A program made the translations under genes and the position numbers. DNA of 64,000 bases from a virus. Lineage: Duplodnaviria; Heunggongvirae; Uroviricota; Caudoviricetes. Location: positions 779 to 64,778 of IMG/VR virus record IMGVR_UViG_3300017565_000017. One strand, 5' to 3'. This document shows, piece by piece, positions 1 to 6,334 of the stretch (positions are counted from its first letter, which is position 1; every line of letters starts with the position of its first letter). Below the pieces are notes generated by a model. The model had not been told where the DNA came from, made no database searches, and was given only the letters and a program-made list of their open reading frames with translations.

Positions 1-1
1 T

Positions 2-190
2 ATGGCGCAACGCGCCGCTACCCATTTCGACCGCGATCAGCGCGCCGATGCACCTAGCGCGGATTACGTGGTGTTTTACGTGGAACCGTGGGGGCGCTGG
101 GTCGGCGCGATCAACCTTAGCCAACTGGTAAACCGCAAGCATTCGACGGGCGGGTATCTCGGGTTTTGCAAGGGTTTCTATACGTGGTAA
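2..190 (+). CDS. Hypothetical early protein, possibly 5'-truncated by the window edge
   Basis: ORF ends at TAA directly before the repeated hairpin/palindrome/terminator module, like the downstream cassettes. Confidence 0.5.
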   Translation: MAQRAATHFDRDQRADAPSADYVVFYVEPWGRWVGAINLSQLVNRKHSTGGYLGFCKGFYTW

Positions 191-209
191 GCCCGGGGCG
201 AAAGCCCCT

Positions 210-225
210 TGTTTCCCGTGAAACG
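210..225. promoter_or_regulatory. parS-like site, 2 mismatches (TGTTTCCCGTGAAACG)
   Basis: 14/16 match to the ParB/Spo0J parS consensus TGTTTCACGTGAAACA; same position (after stop, before terminator) as the two perfect copies. Confidence 0.6.
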
Positions 226-226
226 C

Positions 227-248
227 AAGCCCCCTAGCGGGGCTTTTT
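227..248 (+). terminator. Intrinsic terminator (repeat family AAGCCCC(C)TAGCGGGGCTTTT)
   Basis: GC stem plus T tract; near-identical copies at 882, 1260, 2328. Confidence 0.85.
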
Positions 249-251
249 GTA

Positions 252-275
252 TGCTATACTGTAGTCCCCTAACCC
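252..275 (+). promoter_or_regulatory. Early extended -10 promoter TGcTATACT plus CCCTAACCC leader box
   Basis: TGnTATACT followed by GTAGTCCCCTAACCC, repeated in the other cassettes. Confidence 0.75.
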
Positions 276-293
276 GTATAACAAGGCGATTCT

Positions 294-860
294 ATGGCCC
301 CCACGTATACCCCCACACAATCCACCATGGCGCGCATTGCTGCGGAATTTGACGCGACATTTAACGCCCTTACGGCCCCTGGCGTTATACCGGATTCGCA
401 CCTATCCCAATGGCAACGCGACGAATGCGACCCGGTAGAAACCCGCGAATTCATCGCATCCGCCCGCGCCCTGCCTTGCCTGTATAGCGTATGGCAAGGT
501 TGCACGGCATACCCCGATGATGCGCGTTATACGGGATTGGGTATCATCCAATCCGAAAGCGAACAAGCGCATTTGCTAGGCGAGTACATAAGCCCCGATA
601 ACGATATGGCCGTGTTTGAATGCTTTTTGCAAGAAAGCCCCGCGTATGTTGTCGGCATGGTTGCCGAATACATAGCCGCGCAGTACCGCACCGAAGGCCG
701 GTATGTCATGCCCGCCGAACGCCCCGCCGACTATGGCCCCGCGCAATGGGCGGCGGATCAAAGCGGCGAACTAACGTATAACCGTTTGCTTGAAATTGAG
801 CGGCATGTACCCGCTCAATTTTTGGCGATGCTGCATAACGTTTTCCGCGACATTAACTAG
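294..860 (+). CDS. Hypothetical early protein (188 aa)
   Basis: Fills the cassette between promoter and parS/terminator. Confidence 0.75.
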   Translation: MAPTYTPTQSTMARIAAEFDATFNALTAPGVIPDSHLSQWQRDECDPVETREFIASARALPCLYSVWQGCTAYPDDARYTGLGIIQSESEQAHLLGEYISPDNDMAVFECFLQESPAYVVGMVAEYIAAQYRTEGRYVMPAERPADYGPAQWAADQSGELTYNRLLEIERHVPAQFLAMLHNVFRDIN

Positions 861-864
861 CCCG

Positions 865-880
865 TGTTTCACGTGAAACA
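865..880. promoter_or_regulatory. Perfect parS consensus site TGTTTCACGTGAAACA
   Basis: Perfect 16-bp palindrome (18 bp with flanking G/C) identical to the chromosomal parS consensus; intergenic. Confidence 0.75.
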
Positions 881-881
881 C

Positions 882-904
882 AAGCCCCCTAGCGGGGCTT
901 TTTT
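882..904 (+). terminator. Intrinsic terminator
   Basis: AAGCCCCC-TAGC-GGGGCTT followed by TTTT. Confidence 0.85.
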
Positions 905-946
905 GCATTGGGGTTTGTCCTAGGTGTACGCCACGGCCCTAAACCG

Positions 947-990
947 TGTTATACTAGTTGCACGTTAACCAAAACGGTTAACGCCTAACC
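947..990 (+). promoter_or_regulatory. Early extended -10 promoter TGtTATACT with CCTAACC box
   Basis: TGTTATACT 947-955, CCTAACC 984-990, GGAG SD before ATG 1003. Confidence 0.65.
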
Positions 991-1002
991 GGAGTTATAC
1001 AA

Positions 1003-1254
1003 ATGGCCTTACACGACCTGTCCCGCATGGATGCAAGCGACGCCTACGACGAAACCCAAATGCGCGACGATATCCGCGACGGCGATATTATCCGCGTGGT
1101 TAGCGGTGTCGTTATCATGGTGCAAGCGTGGCCCGTGCTGGTATGGGGCGATGCTTGCGAATGCTTCCAAACGCTTGCCCCCGGCTTTACGTGGGATATG
1201 GTAGAGAATGGCAAGTATGCCGATGCGGCCCGCCAAGCCCTAGCACTACAGTAA
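1003..1254 (+). CDS. Hypothetical early protein (83 aa)
   Basis: GGAG SD; single-gene cassette. Confidence 0.75.
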   Translation: MALHDLSRMDASDAYDETQMRDDIRDGDIIRVVSGVVIMVQAWPVLVWGDACECFQTLAPGFTWDMVENGKYADAARQALALQ

Positions 1255-1259
1255 AACAC

Positions 1260-1284
1260 AAGCCCCTAGCGGGGCTTTTCTTTT
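1260..1284 (+). terminator. Intrinsic terminator
   Basis: AAGCCCC-TAGC-GGGGCTT then TTCTTTT. Confidence 0.85.
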
Positions 1285-1318
1285 GGCCTAACCCCCTTGC
1301 GCACGTGGCCCGAAACCG

Positions 1319-1343
1319 TGTTATACTGTAGTCCCCTAACCCC
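1319..1343 (+). promoter_or_regulatory. Early extended -10 promoter plus leader box
   Basis: TGTTATACTGTAGTCCCCTAACCCC. Confidence 0.75.
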
Positions 1344-1356
1344 TAGGTATAACAAC

Positions 1357-1839
1357 ATGGCACAAAGTCTAGTTCAACAGGCGCGATTTATGCAGGCGGC
1401 AGGCGTTAACACTTACCCCCTAGTGCATGCGGCCCTAATCGGCATTCTTACCGCGCTGGATGTTGCCCCGCTTACCCCTTCGCGCTTTGCGCAAACGCCC
1501 CTTGTGCAATGGCCTGTCGTGCTATACGCGGCGCGGGATACGTGGGCCGTAGAACATATGGATATGTTGGCCGAACCCGATACGCCGCCCGTAGCCCCTG
1601 GCGTTAGCCCGCTTATGGCGCTAGAGGTACGTTTGTCGCAAAACCCGGCGCAAAACTTGCCCCGGTTTATCAATGCCGTATCCGAATTGGTACGCGACGG
1701 GCAACGGTATAACACCGATGGGCGCGGCGGGCAGGCCCTAGCGCTAGGTGTCGCGCCCGAAGTTGCCGCCAGCTTTTACCGGGATTACGCCGTGCCTATC
1801 CTTGATGATATCGCCAATGGTACTCTGATTCGCACGTAA
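1357..1839 (+). CDS. Hypothetical early protein (start moved to ATG 1357)
   Basis: The track start at 1297 lies upstream of the promoter; ATG 1357 follows the conserved GGTATAAC leader. Confidence 0.75.
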   Translation: MAQSLVQQARFMQAAGVNTYPLVHAALIGILTALDVAPLTPSRFAQTPLVQWPVVLYAARDTWAVEHMDMLAEPDTPPVAPGVSPLMALEVRLSQNPAQNLPRFINAVSELVRDGQRYNTDGRGGQALALGVAPEVAASFYRDYAVPILDDIANGTLIRT

Positions 1840-1845
1840 AACACC

Positions 1846-1864
1846 GGGGGCGCAAGCCCCTTTT
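1846..1864 (+). terminator. Intrinsic terminator, GNRA loop
   Basis: GGGGC-GCAA-GCCCC-TTTT. Confidence 0.75.
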
Positions 1865-1867
1865 GCA

Positions 1868-1891
1868 TGCTATACTGTAGCCCCCTAACCC
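1868..1891 (+). promoter_or_regulatory. Early extended -10 promoter plus leader box
   Basis: TGCTATACTGTAGCCCCCTAACCC. Confidence 0.75.
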
Positions 1892-1906
1892 TATAGGTAT
1901 AACCCC

Positions 1907-2305
1907 ATGCGAACGCCGCCCGTTACCTGCTTTCAGATTGAAAACGCCTTTAAGCTACTGGCTAAGGTATGCGAAGCGCCCGAAGCCGAACGCGCCGCCT
2001 ATTTCCCGCTTACTACGCAAGCCCTAACGCATGGGTATAACGCGGAAATGATCGGGGTTGCCGAACCCCCTAGCGCTGAATGGTTGGCGCAAGAAATAGC
2101 CGATCACGTGCGCAGTATGCCGCGCTGTTTCGCCTTGCTAGAATGCTGGCTTGCCGACAACCCTAAGCATATCCACCGGGCAGGCTTGTTTAATATGGCG
2201 CTGGCGGGTTATATCTCGGGCGAACCCGGCCTAACCGCTTATGCGCCATTGCGTACCGCATTGCCTATCGCTATACGCGCCTGCCTTGATGACGCATGGC
2301 GATAG
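1907..2305 (+). CDS. Hypothetical early protein (132 aa)
   Basis: Single-gene cassette. Confidence 0.75.
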   Translation: MRTPPVTCFQIENAFKLLAKVCEAPEAERAAYFPLTTQALTHGYNAEMIGVAEPPSAEWLAQEIADHVRSMPRCFALLECWLADNPKHIHRAGLFNMALAGYISGEPGLTAYAPLRTALPIAIRACLDDAWR

Positions 2306-2310
2306 CCCCT

Positions 2311-2326
2311 TGTTTCACGTGAAACA
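2311..2326. promoter_or_regulatory. Perfect parS consensus site TGTTTCACGTGAAACA
   Basis: Perfect 16-bp palindrome, intergenic, directly before the terminator. Confidence 0.75.
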
Positions 2327-2327
2327 C

Positions 2328-2353
2328 AAGCCCCCTAGCGGGGCTTTTCTTTT
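2328..2353 (+). terminator. Intrinsic terminator
   Basis: AAGCCCCCTAGCGGGGCTTTTCTTTT. Confidence 0.85.
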
Positions 2354-2365
2354 ACCCCGTTTTCG

Positions 2366-2390
2366 TGTTATACTGTAGTCCCCTAACCCC
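2366..2390 (+). promoter_or_regulatory. Early extended -10 promoter plus leader box
   Basis: TGTTATACTGTAGTCCCCTAACCCC; leader nearly identical to that of ORF 1907. Confidence 0.75.
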
Positions 2391-2405
2391 TATAGGTATA
2401 ACCCC

Positions 2406-2705
2406 ATGCCTCAAAATATGATCGACCTAGCACTAGCTAACCCTGGCCTTGCGGCGGGCTATGCGTTTGTGCTGTATGCCATGCTGTACGGCGTAGTAAT
2501 GGCCCGTGTCAATCGCCAGCGCCGTATACTTATCGCGGCCACGCAACGCAAAGCGCGGGGCCTGCCTAACGGGGCCGTTATCCCCGTACCGTATCGCCCT
2601 AACTGGTTTATCCGCGTATGGCCCGATACCGGCATTCGCATAGCCCTAGCCCTTGTGATTGTGGGCGATATCGGGCACATGGTGTATAACCGCCTAACCC
2701 TCTAG
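2406..2705 (+). CDS. Hypothetical membrane protein (99 aa, 2 predicted TM helices)
   Basis: Hydrophobic segments LAAGYAFVLYAMLYGVVM and IRIALALVIVGDI separated by a basic loop. Confidence 0.7.
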   Translation: MPQNMIDLALANPGLAAGYAFVLYAMLYGVVMARVNRQRRILIAATQRKARGLPNGAVIPVPYRPNWFIRVWPDTGIRIALALVIVGDIGHMVYNRLTL

Positions 2706-2923
2706 GGCAGGGCAACCCCCTAACCCGTCAACGCATAGCAGCAGCAGCAGCGCACGGGTTAGGGCTTACCCCCATACCCCATAGGGGGGGGGCGATCACA
2801 GGCGGGTTAGGGTTTTTACCCATGGCCCGCGATTTTGGGTTTTTTGCTATGACGAGTTTTACAGAAACCTCTGTTATACAAACATAGACTCCAGAAAACT
2901 TATGACCCATCTGACCGACTCAG

Positions 2924-2968
2924 GGGGTGTACCCGTGTTCTATCCAGTTTTCCTGGAGGTACCATTCG
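2924..2968 (+). repeat. Structured repeat GGGGTGTACC-N24-GGTACCATTCG, copy 1
   Basis: Conserved ends; inner hairpin TCCAG/CTGGA. Confidence 0.75.
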
Positions 2969-3056
2969 GGGTTTAGAGGAATAAATTCCTCAGCCGTATG
3001 ACGATTTTTGCACAGACCGTAAACTAGAGGTTTCCAACCTCCAAAAGCGCACCCCT

Positions 3057-3614
3057 ATGGATATAAACACTCAATATCTCGATGAGGGACCTCTGGACGA
3101 CGGTAGTGAACGGTGGGCCTCTATAGACGAAATGTATGCAGTTTCTGACCATGGGCGCGTATGGGCAGCGTATGTGCCTCAGAACCAAACCTGGGACGGC
3201 ATGGAACTGATGGTTCTCAATGGACGACCGGGAATTCTGAAGAAATTTTTCCTAGATCGCTACGGCTACCAGCAAGTAATGCTGCGTGAGCGTAAGATGT
3301 TAGTCCACCGACTAGTAGCCCTATCCTTCATAGCGAATCCAATGTCCTACCCTATGGTACTCCACCAGGATGGGAACCCAACTCACAACTGGTTCCGTAA
3401 TCTACGTTGGGGAAACGCCCGTATGAACACAAGGGACGCACAGACCCATGGAACCTACAGAAACGGGACTGGCCGCATTCCAAAGCAGGATCTGTACAGT
3501 GTAGACCTACTGTATGAAATGGTAGACAGAGGACTTCCTAATAAGAAGATTGCTCGTATGTTCGGCATAGCTCCATCCACCGTTCGCTACCGAGTTAAGA
3601 ACCGCCCTCAATAG
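3057..3614 (+). CDS. NUMOD4-HNH homing endonuclease with C-terminal HTH
   Basis: YAVSDHGRV (NUMOD4-like); VHRLVALSF..VLHQDGNPTHNWFRNLRWGNARMN (HNH_3); IARMFGIAPSTVRY (HTH). Confidence 0.9.
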   Translation: MDINTQYLDEGPLDDGSERWASIDEMYAVSDHGRVWAAYVPQNQTWDGMELMVLNGRPGILKKFFLDRYGYQQVMLRERKMLVHRLVALSFIANPMSYPMVLHQDGNPTHNWFRNLRWGNARMNTRDAQTHGTYRNGTGRIPKQDLYSVDLLYEMVDRGLPNKKIARMFGIAPSTVRYRVKNRPQ

Positions 3615-3658
3615 GGGTGTACCTCCTTAGAACTCATTCCTGAGTCTGGTACCATTCG
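3614..3658 (+). repeat. Structured repeat, copy 2
   Basis: GGGGTGTACC-N24-GGTACCATTCG; inner hairpin ACTCA/TGAGT; starts at the last base of the HNH stop codon. Confidence 0.75.
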
Positions 3659-3758
3659 CCCTATAGACCCGGATTTGCAAGCAAATCCTAAGACCTATTA
3701 GAACGGACTCTAACGCTCGGTTTTATGGCCCGCTTTACGCCGTAAAGCTAGCGCCCCC

Positions 3759-3802
3759 TGTACAAAACCCCACAAACAAGGGTAGTATGGCAAGCCCTAA
3801 CC
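3759..3802 (+). promoter_or_regulatory. Putative sigma70-like promoter with CCCTAACC box
   Basis: TGTACA-18-TAGTAT; CCCTAACC 3795-3802; perfect inverted repeat GCTTTACG-C-CGTAAAGC at 3732-3748 just upstream. Confidence 0.45.
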
Positions 3803-3824
3803 AAAACAGCGCCCGCATAAGCCC

Positions 3825-4193
3825 ATGGCAGACCAAGATTTGCAGACAAATCCTAACCGTTCCCAACAGATGAAGCAACTGGAGTCGTTCTTCAACCGAC
3901 CCGACCTGGACCCAGCAGACCGGGCTTACGCTCTACGCATTGTTCGTCAGATTGAAGAACAGTCCTATCCTGTTCCGGTCACTGCCCGTATCCTGAGCGA
4001 GCACCCTCTCCAGGCTCTACTTAGCTGGATCTTCACGTGGGGGCGGGTACGTGTATGGATCCGTAATCAAACGGTAGTCGTGACCACTATACGCAACGAC
4101 GGTACAGAGGTGGTCCATGAGAACATTGGGATCAAAGGTGACTTCCGTATCCCTATGGCCCTGGCACTCTCACACACGGATTTGCTGGACTGA
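3825..4193 (+). CDS. H[PT]D-motif paralogue family protein
   Basis: 122 aa, ends LALSHTDLLD. Confidence 0.75.
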   Translation: MADQDLQTNPNRSQQMKQLESFFNRPDLDPADRAYALRIVRQIEEQSYPVPVTARILSEHPLQALLSWIFTWGRVRVWIRNQTVVVTTIRNDGTEVVHENIGIKGDFRIPMALALSHTDLLD

Positions 4194-4204
4194 GGACCTA
4201 AACT

Positions 4205-4573
4205 ATGCTCGATACCATAGCCGACCCCAACTGGTCGGTCATCAGTCATCAGGTGCAAACCAATATGGAGCACCTGCCGGAGACTGTCCGGAGACGCTTC
4301 CTAAGCGTTAACGTAGGTCTGTCGTTTTACGGCCTCCCTCCACCTCAGGTCATGAACCTGACCTCCAGCTGCGCAAATCTGATCTGGAACTATAACTCCA
4401 CGGTCCGCGTCTTCACCTGGGCGACACCTGAAGGCATAGGAGCTCGGGTCAAAGACGTACTGACTGGTGAGTTTCTATATCAGGTCGGTGACGATGTGGA
4501 CACTATTGTAGACTTTGTTATACGACATGCGAGCCACCCTGACCTGATTAACAACCTGAAGACTCCCCTGTAA
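4205..4573 (+). CDS. H[PT]D-motif paralogue family protein
   Basis: 122 aa; DPNW, YGLPPP, SHPDLI. Confidence 0.8.
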   Translation: MLDTIADPNWSVISHQVQTNMEHLPETVRRRFLSVNVGLSFYGLPPPQVMNLTSSCANLIWNYNSTVRVFTWATPEGIGARVKDVLTGEFLYQVGDDVDTIVDFVIRHASHPDLINNLKTPL

Positions 4574-4574
4574 G

Positions 4575-5006
4575 ATGGAACTCGATAACCCCACCTGGGA
4601 CCAGATCATAGAACTGGTCCAGAAGATGCCTAGTCTCAACCCTCATATACGGGACACCTTCCACATCTTTACCCAGATGGCTCAGAACTACAGAGTGCCG
4701 TCTCCGTGGCGCGTGTACTCCCCCGATCCTCGTACGCTGGAATCCAGTCCAGGGTCGAGTGCGCAACCTAAAGTCCAGATCTTCTTTCCGCAAGGCGTAT
4801 ACATGGCAATCCGGCCCGCTGCATTTTATGTGGGGCAGCTTGTGATCCGGCCTCGGCTGGATGTCCGCATCGAGCAGACGGGGACATGGCACGACGTGAT
4901 TGTCGAACTCAAGAGGCTGATCGGTCACGCAGATGACTACACGCTAGACTACCACCTGGACATACCCTGGACTAGCAAAGATCTGGCGTCATTGATCAAG
5001 AAGTAG
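4575..5006 (+). CDS. Probable H[PT]D family member with degenerate motif
   Basis: 143 aa; N-terminal DNPTWDQII like the 6725 protein; C-terminal GHADDY. Confidence 0.75.
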   Translation: MELDNPTWDQIIELVQKMPSLNPHIRDTFHIFTQMAQNYRVPSPWRVYSPDPRTLESSPGSSAQPKVQIFFPQGVYMAIRPAAFYVGQLVIRPRLDVRIEQTGTWHDVIVELKRLIGHADDYTLDYHLDIPWTSKDLASLIKK

Positions 5007-5024
5007 TCCAGAAGGTGGATCTAG

Positions 5025-5070
5025 GGGGTGTACCCCCCTTTCAGACTCTAGATCCTAGAGGTACCATTCG
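5025..5070 (+). repeat. Structured repeat, copy 3
   Basis: GGGGTGTACC-N25-GGTACCATTCG; inner hairpin CTCTAG/CTAGAG. Confidence 0.75.
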
Positions 5071-5107
5071 GGCTTTACCTCCTATTTTTGTTATACGGTA
5101 CGGGTAA

Positions 5108-5158
5108 TTGTTATACAGGGCAAAGCGTGGTAACATAGGCCGCAAGTAACCCCTAACC
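5108..5158 (+). promoter_or_regulatory. Putative sigma70-like promoter with CCCTAACC box
   Basis: TTGTTA-17-TAACAT with TGn; TTGTTATAC direct repeat at 5088 and 5108; CCCTAACC 5151-5158. Confidence 0.55.
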
Positions 5159-5174
5159 TATAAACCCGCTGCCC

Positions 5175-5519
5175 ATGCCCCAATTTCTAAACCCCGACCT
5201 ACTGACCTCCATATACGAGTTGGGAATCCACGGTCCCAGTTCCGTGTACGTTCATAACCTATGCACGGCTGGCATTCAGGTGGCTCATACCCGGCTGGGA
5301 CCACCTCCTGTCATGTCCTTGAACCGCACCCTTGTCCGGCTCTGGTATCCTCAGCATAAGTTGTGTCTTGCCCTTCGGGGTCGCCACGTGTGGGCCTTTT
5401 CCAGAATGGTCCCCATTCGTCAGATTAGCAGTACGGAATACCTGTTCCGGCTCCGTGGCACTCGTGATCTGTTGAGCGCTATCGATCAACATCTGGGTCA
5501 GCGAGCCGTTCATGGGTAA
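5175..5519 (+). CDS. Hypothetical protein (114 aa), possible array member lacking the motif
   Basis: Follows the promoter; GPPPVM segment resembles its neighbours; overlaps the next ORF by 8 nt. Confidence 0.65.
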   Translation: MPQFLNPDLLTSIYELGIHGPSSVYVHNLCTAGIQVAHTRLGPPPVMSLNRTLVRLWYPQHKLCLALRGRHVWAFSRMVPIRQISSTEYLFRLRGTRDLLSAIDQHLGQRAVHG

Positions 5520-5937
5520 GATTTGGCGCATAGCCAGCAATTGGAACTGGGACAAGATTCGCGAATACGCACAGACCATGGATCTGGAGGAGGTCTCCAG
5601 GGAACAATCTCTCTGGGTCCTAAAACAGGCGAGTTCTCTGGTCAAACCCCCGGAGCTAGTTGTAGCTACCCCCGAAATCACGGTCTTGACCTGGTATCCT
5701 AACCCTAATCAGGTACGGGATCACACCGAGATGAAGATCCATCTTGAGGACTACGCGCCCAAGGGTTCCGTGTACGAGTTTGAGCCGCACGCCGTATTTC
5801 CTGAGCTGAAACAAAGAGCAGTTGGGGCCACGGACACTCTAGCCCTCCTCGTGACCCAACTTCTTCACCCGGACTTGATTGCCAGACCTGGGAATCTGGT
5901 CTACACTGTAACAGGATGTAACGATGCCGAGAGCTAA
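5512..5937 (+). CDS. H[PT]D-motif paralogue family protein
   Basis: 141 aa; LLHPDLI. Confidence 0.8.
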   Translation: MGKIWRIASNWNWDKIREYAQTMDLEEVSREQSLWVLKQASSLVKPPELVVATPEITVLTWYPNPNQVRDHTEMKIHLEDYAPKGSVYEFEPHAVFPELKQRAVGATDTLALLVTQLLHPDLIARPGNLVYTVTGCNDAES

Positions 5938-6334
5938 ACCCCGGGACTGGAACGACGTCAAGTTCGCGATCCACAACTACGGTATTGACGAGGACACCCG
6001 AGCGTGTGCCCTCCAGACGGTTAAAGGACTAACGGATCGAGGTGTGGCCCTGCCTTCGTGGGTTATCCTAACGGACCGGGAACCAGACGACATTAAGCGC
6101 ACAGAGCCTCGTATTGCTCTGGTGTGGGAACCCTCGAAAGCGGCTTCGTACCCATTCCTGGTCGTCTACCACGACCGATGCACGGTCGGCCACTATGAGG
6201 CCGAGACCTACACGGCGGTTCTCCTGGATAACGAAGCTCGGGACACGCAGGATACTATGGTGCTGATTCGCGCCCTCGCAGCCTATCTTATCCACCCTGA
6301 TGTGGTGACCACCAACGAGGAATACCAGCGATGA
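5924..6334 (+). CDS. H[PT]D-motif paralogue family protein
   Basis: 136 aa; RGVALPS, LIHPDVV. Confidence 0.8.
   Translation: MPRAKPRDWNDVKFAIHNYGIDEDTRACALQTVKGLTDRGVALPSWVILTDREPDDIKRTEPRIALVWEPSKAASYPFLVVYHDRCTVGHYEAETYTAVLLDNEARDTQDTMVLIRALAAYLIHPDVVTTNEEYQR

Follow-up and report, generated by a model that had tools for sequence, protein, structure and literature searches.

A dense array of parS sites in the early region

The DNA analysed here (the window) is 64,000 nucleotides (nt) long and covers bases 779-64,778 of the 242,859-bp IMG/VR virus record IMGVR_UViG_3300017565_000017. It contained the right-hand, last three sites of an array of parS, the palindrome of bacterial chromosomal centromeres. 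The full array consisted of 13 sites that spanned 8,162 bp in the early-gene region of a 250,940-bp jumbo phage genome. We consider it fairly probable that this is a genuine chromosomal-type parS array, bound by host ParB and coupling the phage chromosome to host ParA and SMC.

In the window, the 16-mer TGTTTCACGTGAAACA was found perfectly at 865-880 and 2311-2326, and with two mismatches at 210-225. The initial annotation, made from the window, had listed the same three sites as intergenic. A re-scan agreed with it on both points, and showed that it had understated the array (3 of 13 sites). In the IMG/VR record, all matches with up to two mismatches lay within the first 3.1 kb, at genome positions 15 (perfect), 519 (T5C), 988, 1643 and 3089, the first two being additional to those in the window. 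Eight more perfect sites were present in an 8,081-bp segment that is absent from the record. In total, 11 sites were perfect, one carried T5C and one carried A7C and A16G. No further site was found at this threshold in the other approximately 243 kb of the genome.

The consensus TGTTNCACGTGAAACA, a 16-bp palindrome taken from PMC5450999 and PMC7022226, was matched by the 11 perfect copies and by the T5C copy, in which the change falls on the N position. When up to three mismatches were allowed, the window gave four matches where 0.35 were expected; four matches were not reached in any of 100 dinucleotide-preserving shuffles. A look-alike with three mismatches lies within a 100-amino-acid (aa) open reading frame (ORF) and was excluded from the count; with its altered position 6, it is probably non-functional.

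All 13 sites were intergenic, although non-coding DNA made up only 40% of the span (p about 6e-6). The density was about one site per 0.63 kb, and three pairs lay only 58, 24 and 47 bp apart, start to start. The centromere-like clustering proposed from the window was thus borne out across the genome, with several copies gathered in one loading zone of a jumbo myophage in which neither ParB nor integrase was found.

The missing segment was recovered through a 188-aa protein encoded in the window (Table 1), which two further contigs also encode, one of 251,081 bp from ENA and an independent one of 12.4 kb. On both fuller contigs the right end of the record was joined to its left start (identities of 141/141, 818/818 and 11,636/11,638 bases), and both had the extra 8,081 bp (L178:142-8222 and L179:819-8919). 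The ENA contig has a terminal overlap of 141 bp, which reduces it to 250,940 bp. The sum of 242,859 and 8,081 is also 250,940, equal to 251,081 minus 141, which identifies the long contig as a circular k141 assembly of a genome of about 251 kb. The IMG/VR record is labelled 'linear' and rated 100% complete, yet these 8,081 bp, which join its right end to its left start, are missing from it. The IMG/VR assembly was probably interrupted at the array by the repeated parS-terminator modules, and contigs of related strains in metagenomes also ended at such modules. In practice, repeated sites of this kind break assemblies, and the public record lacks exactly this region.

Conservation of the 16-mer in relatives

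Orthologues of the 188-aa protein at 73-75% identity were found on short Logan contigs and represented two diverged lineages. One contig, L174, contained six parS sites in 4.6 kb (five perfect and one T5C). The other, L173, contained three in 3.2 kb (one perfect and two T5C). The same protein had no relative in IMG/VR, and the JGI metagenome collection gave only one identical contig.

All six L174 sites corresponded to sites of the studied phage. Orthologous sites were 16/16 identical between flanks of 55-83% identity, or 15/16 identical between flanks of 33-44%. Site 12, for example, was 16/16 identical in L174, with 60-nt flanks at 55-73%. The lowest value, 13/16 between flanks of 70-90%, belonged to the already weakened copy at window position 210. 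One L174 site pair kept its spacing of 47 bp although the 31-bp spacer had diverged.

An alignment of 14 sites (the five of the record and those of L174 and L173) gave an information content of 1.9 bits per position inside the 16-mer, against 0.25-0.35 bits in the 20-nt flanks. The step fell exactly at the edges of the 16-mer. Across the three lineages only positions 5, 7 and 16 varied, all of them among those tolerated by ParB. In a surface plasmon resonance study of Burkholderia cenocepacia ParB with canonical parS, changes at the distal positions 1/16 and transitions at 5/12 were tolerated; positions 7/10 are partly permissive in other species, and the remaining symmetrical changes abolish ParB binding (PMC5450999). 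We interpreted this pattern to mean that selection acts on the DNA 16-mer itself, with the boundaries and tolerances of a ParB site.

The window sites alone could suggest a different constraint. All three lie a few bases past a stop codon and 2 nt before a strong, near-identical intrinsic terminator. The RNA can form a small hairpin, and at genome site 519 the right arm pairs with the downstream U-tract. The palindrome might therefore work in RNA or as a part of the terminator (a 6-bp stacked hairpin, or an A-tract/U-tract), and have spread with a terminator-promoter cassette. The slot between stop codon and terminator, which the initial annotation had noted, held for these three sites and did not hold elsewhere. 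In the full array and in the relatives, copies also lay after terminators, without terminators, inside 5' leaders and, in L173, 14 bp from a -10 box. At one orthologous site, 20 nt had been inserted before the terminator. Because the context varies in this way among the copies, the constraint is not that of a terminator or an RNA.

Other observations pointed in the same direction. There were no compensatory changes, and the loop ACGT varied no more than the stem. T5C recurs although it disrupts a base pair of the stem. The flanking ORFs were not paralogous, so duplication of a cassette fails to explain the copies; whole-cassette tandem duplication was rejected on this ground. The relatives might have kept a hairpin of unrelated sequence at these places; the opposite was found, the 16-mer being kept while flanks, terminators and spacing had changed. 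A role in RNA or termination appears largely refuted by these comparisons, and we regard it as very improbable.

The palindrome was also considered as a LexA box, a CRP/FNR-type site or a restriction site, and these readings were rejected. The LexA-box and CRP/FNR-type consensus spacings do not fit it, and CACGTG was neither depleted nor enriched, with 65 copies against 59 expected.

Comparison of closer strains was of low power: among the differences listed for strain contigs from wastewater, sediment and soil, no change fell within the sites at genome 15, 519 and 988.

Some details of individual copies were recorded. The copy at genome 15-30 (763 bp upstream of the window; L178:8215-8280) splits the leader box CCCCTAACCC, with CTAAC on either side. 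It was missing at the orthologous spot of L174, and has the look of a recent insertion that duplicated 5 bp. In four other copies, both flanks carry AGCCC(C). The array is densest just downstream of a NUMOD4-HNH homing-endonuclease ORF (L178:2409-2969), with four sites in 220 bp.

Search for the binding protein

No gene for a ParB-family protein was found in the genome with ParB_N, HTH_ParB and TIGR00180. For ParA there was no credible candidate, only a 16-bit P-loop match in a 442-aa frame. The initial annotation had reported neither parA nor parB in the window, and this was upheld genome-wide. The 8.1-kb segment absent from the record had no ParB domain either, its ORFs giving only the homing endonuclease. 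Tyrosine integrase and tubulin were likewise not found in the genome. A self-contained partition cassette has ParB, and usually ParA, on the same element; the studied phage had instead the phi29-type combination of no ParB, no integrase and multiple host-type parS sites. Since the phage is without a ParB-family protein, host ParB is the parsimonious candidate, and on the genome content it is most likely the binder. The canonical chromosomal parS is the same 16-mer, including that of chromosome 1 of B. cenocepacia (PMC5450999; PMC7022226).

The combination was not confined to this phage. At least 119 IMG/VR stretches carried perfect parS, whereas two composition-matched control palindromes occurred in 12 and 8 stretches; parS is thus enriched more than 10-fold in viral contigs. 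Among the matches listed, 29 of the 119 held two or more sites and none more than five. In 35 parS contigs picked for large size or multiple sites, ParB_N was absent from 33; of the ten with a completeness of 90% or more, nine were without it. None of the parS stretches, among the matches listed, shared promoter or leader words with the studied phage; their lineages were unrelated and ranged from 30 to 72% G+C. A context-extended parS pattern gave no match in IMG/VR.

Two of these IMG/VR records, L093 and L099, are 15-16 kb long, have inverted terminal repeats and about 37% G+C, and are rated 100% complete. Each carries three perfect parS and lacks ParB_N; both are probably podoviruses similar to phi29, in line with published precedent.

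A phage protein unrelated to ParB, such as the product of an orphan early ORF, might use the palindrome as its operator, its identity with parS being mimicry or coincidence. For about 20 early ORFs around the array no family was found, the sites are near promoters and terminators as operators are, and three early promoters have a half-site-like GTTTCAC immediately past the -10 box and close to the presumed transcription start. The chance that a perfect 16-bp palindrome matches parS is 1 in 65,536, and the tolerated variants were exactly those of ParB. The >10-fold enrichment extended over unrelated ParB-less viral contigs that share no such ORFs. These three points make a phage-encoded operator protein improbable.

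Identity of the phage and clues to its host

Tail sheath, portal and connector were recognised as myovirus features. At about 50% identity, the portal matches those of Burkholderia phages BcepSauron, BcepSaruman and BCSR5, Ralstonia phage phiRSL1 and Achromobacter phage Motura. The phage is a phiRSL1/BcepSauron-like jumbo myophage of about 251 kb. The type of site argues against a Pseudomonas host, in which parS is TGTTCCACGTGGAACA, and against an Enterobacteriaceae host. To our knowledge, chromosomal par genes are absent from Enterobacteriaceae. The 434-aa gene of the phage, tried for host inference, had no relative in GTDB genomes.

Near-identical DNA was not found in cultured phages; near-identical strains were present in soil, wastewater and sediment metagenomes. 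When window 1-6000 was compared, strains diverged by 1-6% were found in wastewater and sediment metagenomes of 2024-2025 and also in soil samples of 2018. The latter are probably the source of the IMG/VR record.

Features around the window sites

The array sits in a run of small orphan ORFs separated by modules of terminator, sigma-70-type promoter and leader box, which is typical early-gene architecture. The features of the window are collected in Table 1. The 188-aa and 132-aa early ORFs gave no tblastn match in cultured phages and no Pfam family.

Table 1. Coordinates of parS sites and neighbouring features in the window
Feature	Position	Strand	Remark
Three-mismatch look-alike TGTTTTACGTGGAACC	72..87	.	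Within 100-aa ORF; position 6 changed; excluded from array count
Short G+C hairpin GGGGC-GAAA-GCCCC	195..208	+	Directly upstream of site 11, whose left arm is its T-rich tail
parS site 11 of 13, TGTTTCCCGTGAAACG (A7C and A16G)	210..225	.	Weakest copy; L174 orthologue is the T5C variant
Intrinsic terminator after site 11	227..245	+	
Extended -10 box TGcTATACT of next early promoter	255..260	+	29 bp past site 11
Early ORF, 188 aa, no known family	294..860	+	Query that found the diverged relatives
parS site 12 of 13, perfect	865..880	.	Begins 5 nt past stop of 188-aa ORF; ends 2 nt before terminator stem
Intrinsic terminator after site 12	882..900	+	
Extended -10 box TGtTATACT	950..955	+	69 bp past site 12
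GTAAAACA (includes TAA stop) and terminator	1251..1277	+	'Decayed half' of initial annotation; more likely A-tract of bidirectional terminator
CACGTAAAACA and terminator	1833..1860	+	Ambiguous; parS remnant or A-tract possible
Early ORF, 132 aa, no known family	1907..2305	+	Upstream of site 13
parS site 13 of 13, perfect	2311..2326	.	Last of array
Intrinsic terminator after site 13	2328..2346	+	
Extended -10 box TGtTATACT	2369..2374	+	42 bp past site 13

Two further terminator-associated words, at 1251-1258 and 1833-1843, had been taken in the initial annotation for decayed right halves of parS. They are not demonstrably parS remnants. The word GTAAAACA beside a terminator stem is a recurrent A-tract motif, which was seen at other ORF ends of the region and in the relatives, pairing with the U-tract. 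Its complement, TGTTTTAC, was enriched in the early region; in our reading it contains TTTACA, which would be a -35-like hexamer of the early promoters.

Other observations concerned the leaders and repeats. At window 956-982 and genome 619-644, a word resembling half of parS (GGTTTCACGT and AGTTGCACGT) lies just past the -10 box and is followed by a leader hairpin. The arms of these two hairpins show compensatory differences, CGTTAGC...GCTAACG against CGTTAACC...GGTTAACG. The 8.1-kb segment contains an ORF-free stretch of 1.3 kb (L178:1100-2408) with about 12 irregular CTGCTG-rich repeats spaced 38-78 bp apart, which matched no Rfam family. At window 2701-2830, a short CAGCAGCAGCAG run, comparable to these repeats, lies between inverted copies of CCCTAACCCG and CGGGTTAGGG. 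A search of the full early region against Rfam matched no family. A small GNAT acetyltransferase was found among the orphan early genes, at genome 241,587-241,994 (Pfam E 3.5e-6).

Proposed role of the array

In the mechanism that we favour, host ParB dimers would recognise each site, close as cytidine triphosphate (CTP) clamps and slide outward. The 13 sites should act as a very strong ParB-CTP loading zone, and the whole early region would become a ParB partition complex. Coupling of this complex to host ParA and SMC, by analogy with phi29, is the least certain step. It may serve the positioning, compaction or inheritance of phage DNA, above all in infections whose lytic phase is delayed. 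Competition with the few sites of the host chromosome and some damping of neighbouring early promoters would be likely side effects.

For the purpose of the array, we would place coupling to ParA and SMC, the analogue of phi29, first, sequestration of ParB second and damping of early promoters by clamps third. In the second and third cases host ParB would still bind, with an offensive or a regulatory purpose rather than positioning; we regard these together as a possible, lesser explanation. In the offensive version, the 13 sites on each replicating copy would draw ParB away from the few sites of the host, so that origins would fail to segregate, SMC would not be loaded and division would be blocked. 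In the regulatory version, the early promoters would be held back by sliding clamps to a degree that depends on the state of the host, in the style of KorB. The density of sites, above the two of B. cenocepacia chromosome I (PMC7022226), is in keeping with either version. For regulation, the window sites lie 29-69 bp upstream of early -10 boxes, the L173 copy noted above is closer still, and ParB-family clamps can silence promoters, as outlined for KorB in PMC11790492. The distance between site and promoter was not conserved, however: the site centres were estimated near -50, -62, -90 and -97, assuming a transcription start about 7 nt past the -10 box, and several sites had no promoter nearby. 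As to offence, a lytic phage would gain little from upsetting segregation in a cell that is to be killed.

A bolder form of the coupling proposal takes the array as a borrowed centromere. A large lytic-type phage of a non-sporulating Gram-negative host would build a ParB-CTP partition complex on its early region, and host ParA and SMC would centre or individualise its chromosome, or pass it on faithfully. This might allow a carrier or pseudolysogenic state for which neither integrase nor plasmid genes are required, or provide a host-supplied substitute for the PhuZ spindle, which the phage lacks. On this view, the turnover of sites between lineages, with its net gain, would be a sign of selection towards ever stronger capture of ParB. 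We hold this form to be doubtful.

Several points weigh against coupling of the phage chromosome through host ParB. Most sites are in transcribed 3' untranslated regions and leaders of strong early units, so RNA polymerase traffic would disturb ParB. One of the approximately 20 family-less early ORFs around the sites could encode the true binder. The proposed host group (Burkholderia/Ralstonia/Achromobacter) is suggested by a single character, the portal similarity of about 50%. Positioning and inheritance are argued by analogy. Among relatives the result was divided: L174 and L173 had the sites, and no match with up to two mismatches was found in the complete genomes of four cultured portal relatives, nor in 21 IMG/VR portal relatives, all of which are incomplete (3-82%) and thus weak evidence of absence. 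The array is therefore not needed for the basic lytic cycle of the phage family. It appears, from this distribution, to be an accessory, lineage-specific adaptation outside the core cycle. The chromosome-II-type Burkholderia parS was also absent from the four cultured relatives.

Comparison with known systems

The initial annotation had supposed that parS sites on a lytic phage were undescribed. This did not hold. The virulent Bacillus phages phi29 and Nf carry host-type parS, and phi29 has five such sites, bound by host Spo0J, with evidence for a role of Spo0J in segregation of the phage genome into the prespore, as summarised from Meijer et al. 2005 in PMC2731898. In the literature we found no other published case beyond phi29 and Nf, and none for a jumbo phage or a Gram-negative system.

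Like phi29, the studied phage has several chromosomal parS copies and no ParB of its own. For phi29, as far as that summary goes, host Spo0J binds the sites, and the segregation machinery of the host takes charge of the phage genome. With its 19 kb, phi29 is a small protein-primed podovirus whose host forms spores; its five sites are dispersed and are used for spore entrapment together with Spo0A boxes. The studied phage, in contrast, is a myovirus of about 251 kb with 13 sites in 8.2 kb. Because the hosts of its cultured relatives are non-sporulating Proteobacteria (Betaproteobacteria), the use in spore entrapment with Spo0A boxes probably does not apply.

The array resembles the bacterial chromosomal centromere (ParABS-SMC, near oriC) in its palindrome, in the permissive positions 5/12, 1/16 and partly 7/10, and in the clustering of copies. 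It differs in that the replicon has no parAB operon and no known link of the array to a replication origin. Its density exceeds the 2-10 sites given for most of the chromosomes covered in PMC7022226. The P1 and N15 plasmid-prophage cassettes and the KorB/OB system of RK2 are also mobile elements with centromere or operator sites for a ParB-family CTP clamp, and in RK2 such sites lie near promoters and regulate them. These elements have their own ParB or KorB and element-specific sites, whereas the studied phage uses the sequence of the host chromosome. The other ParB-less viral contigs in IMG/VR share the orphan perfect parS, often in small clusters, and come from unrelated lineages. The present case stands out from them by its 13 sites, an unusually dense parS array on a jumbo phage, by the comparative evidence of selection, and by the type of phage. 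It is a clean case, with no phage ParB and with conserved sites that end sharply amid diverged surroundings.

If host ParB does load on the array, ParABS/SMC would be a host factor for a jumbo phage, and would offer a concrete starting point for studying the organisation of very large phage genomes in cells that have neither a phage spindle nor a phage nucleus. Together with the enrichment of parS in viral contigs, the array suggests that phages far removed from phi29 repeatedly borrow the host centromere as a strategy.

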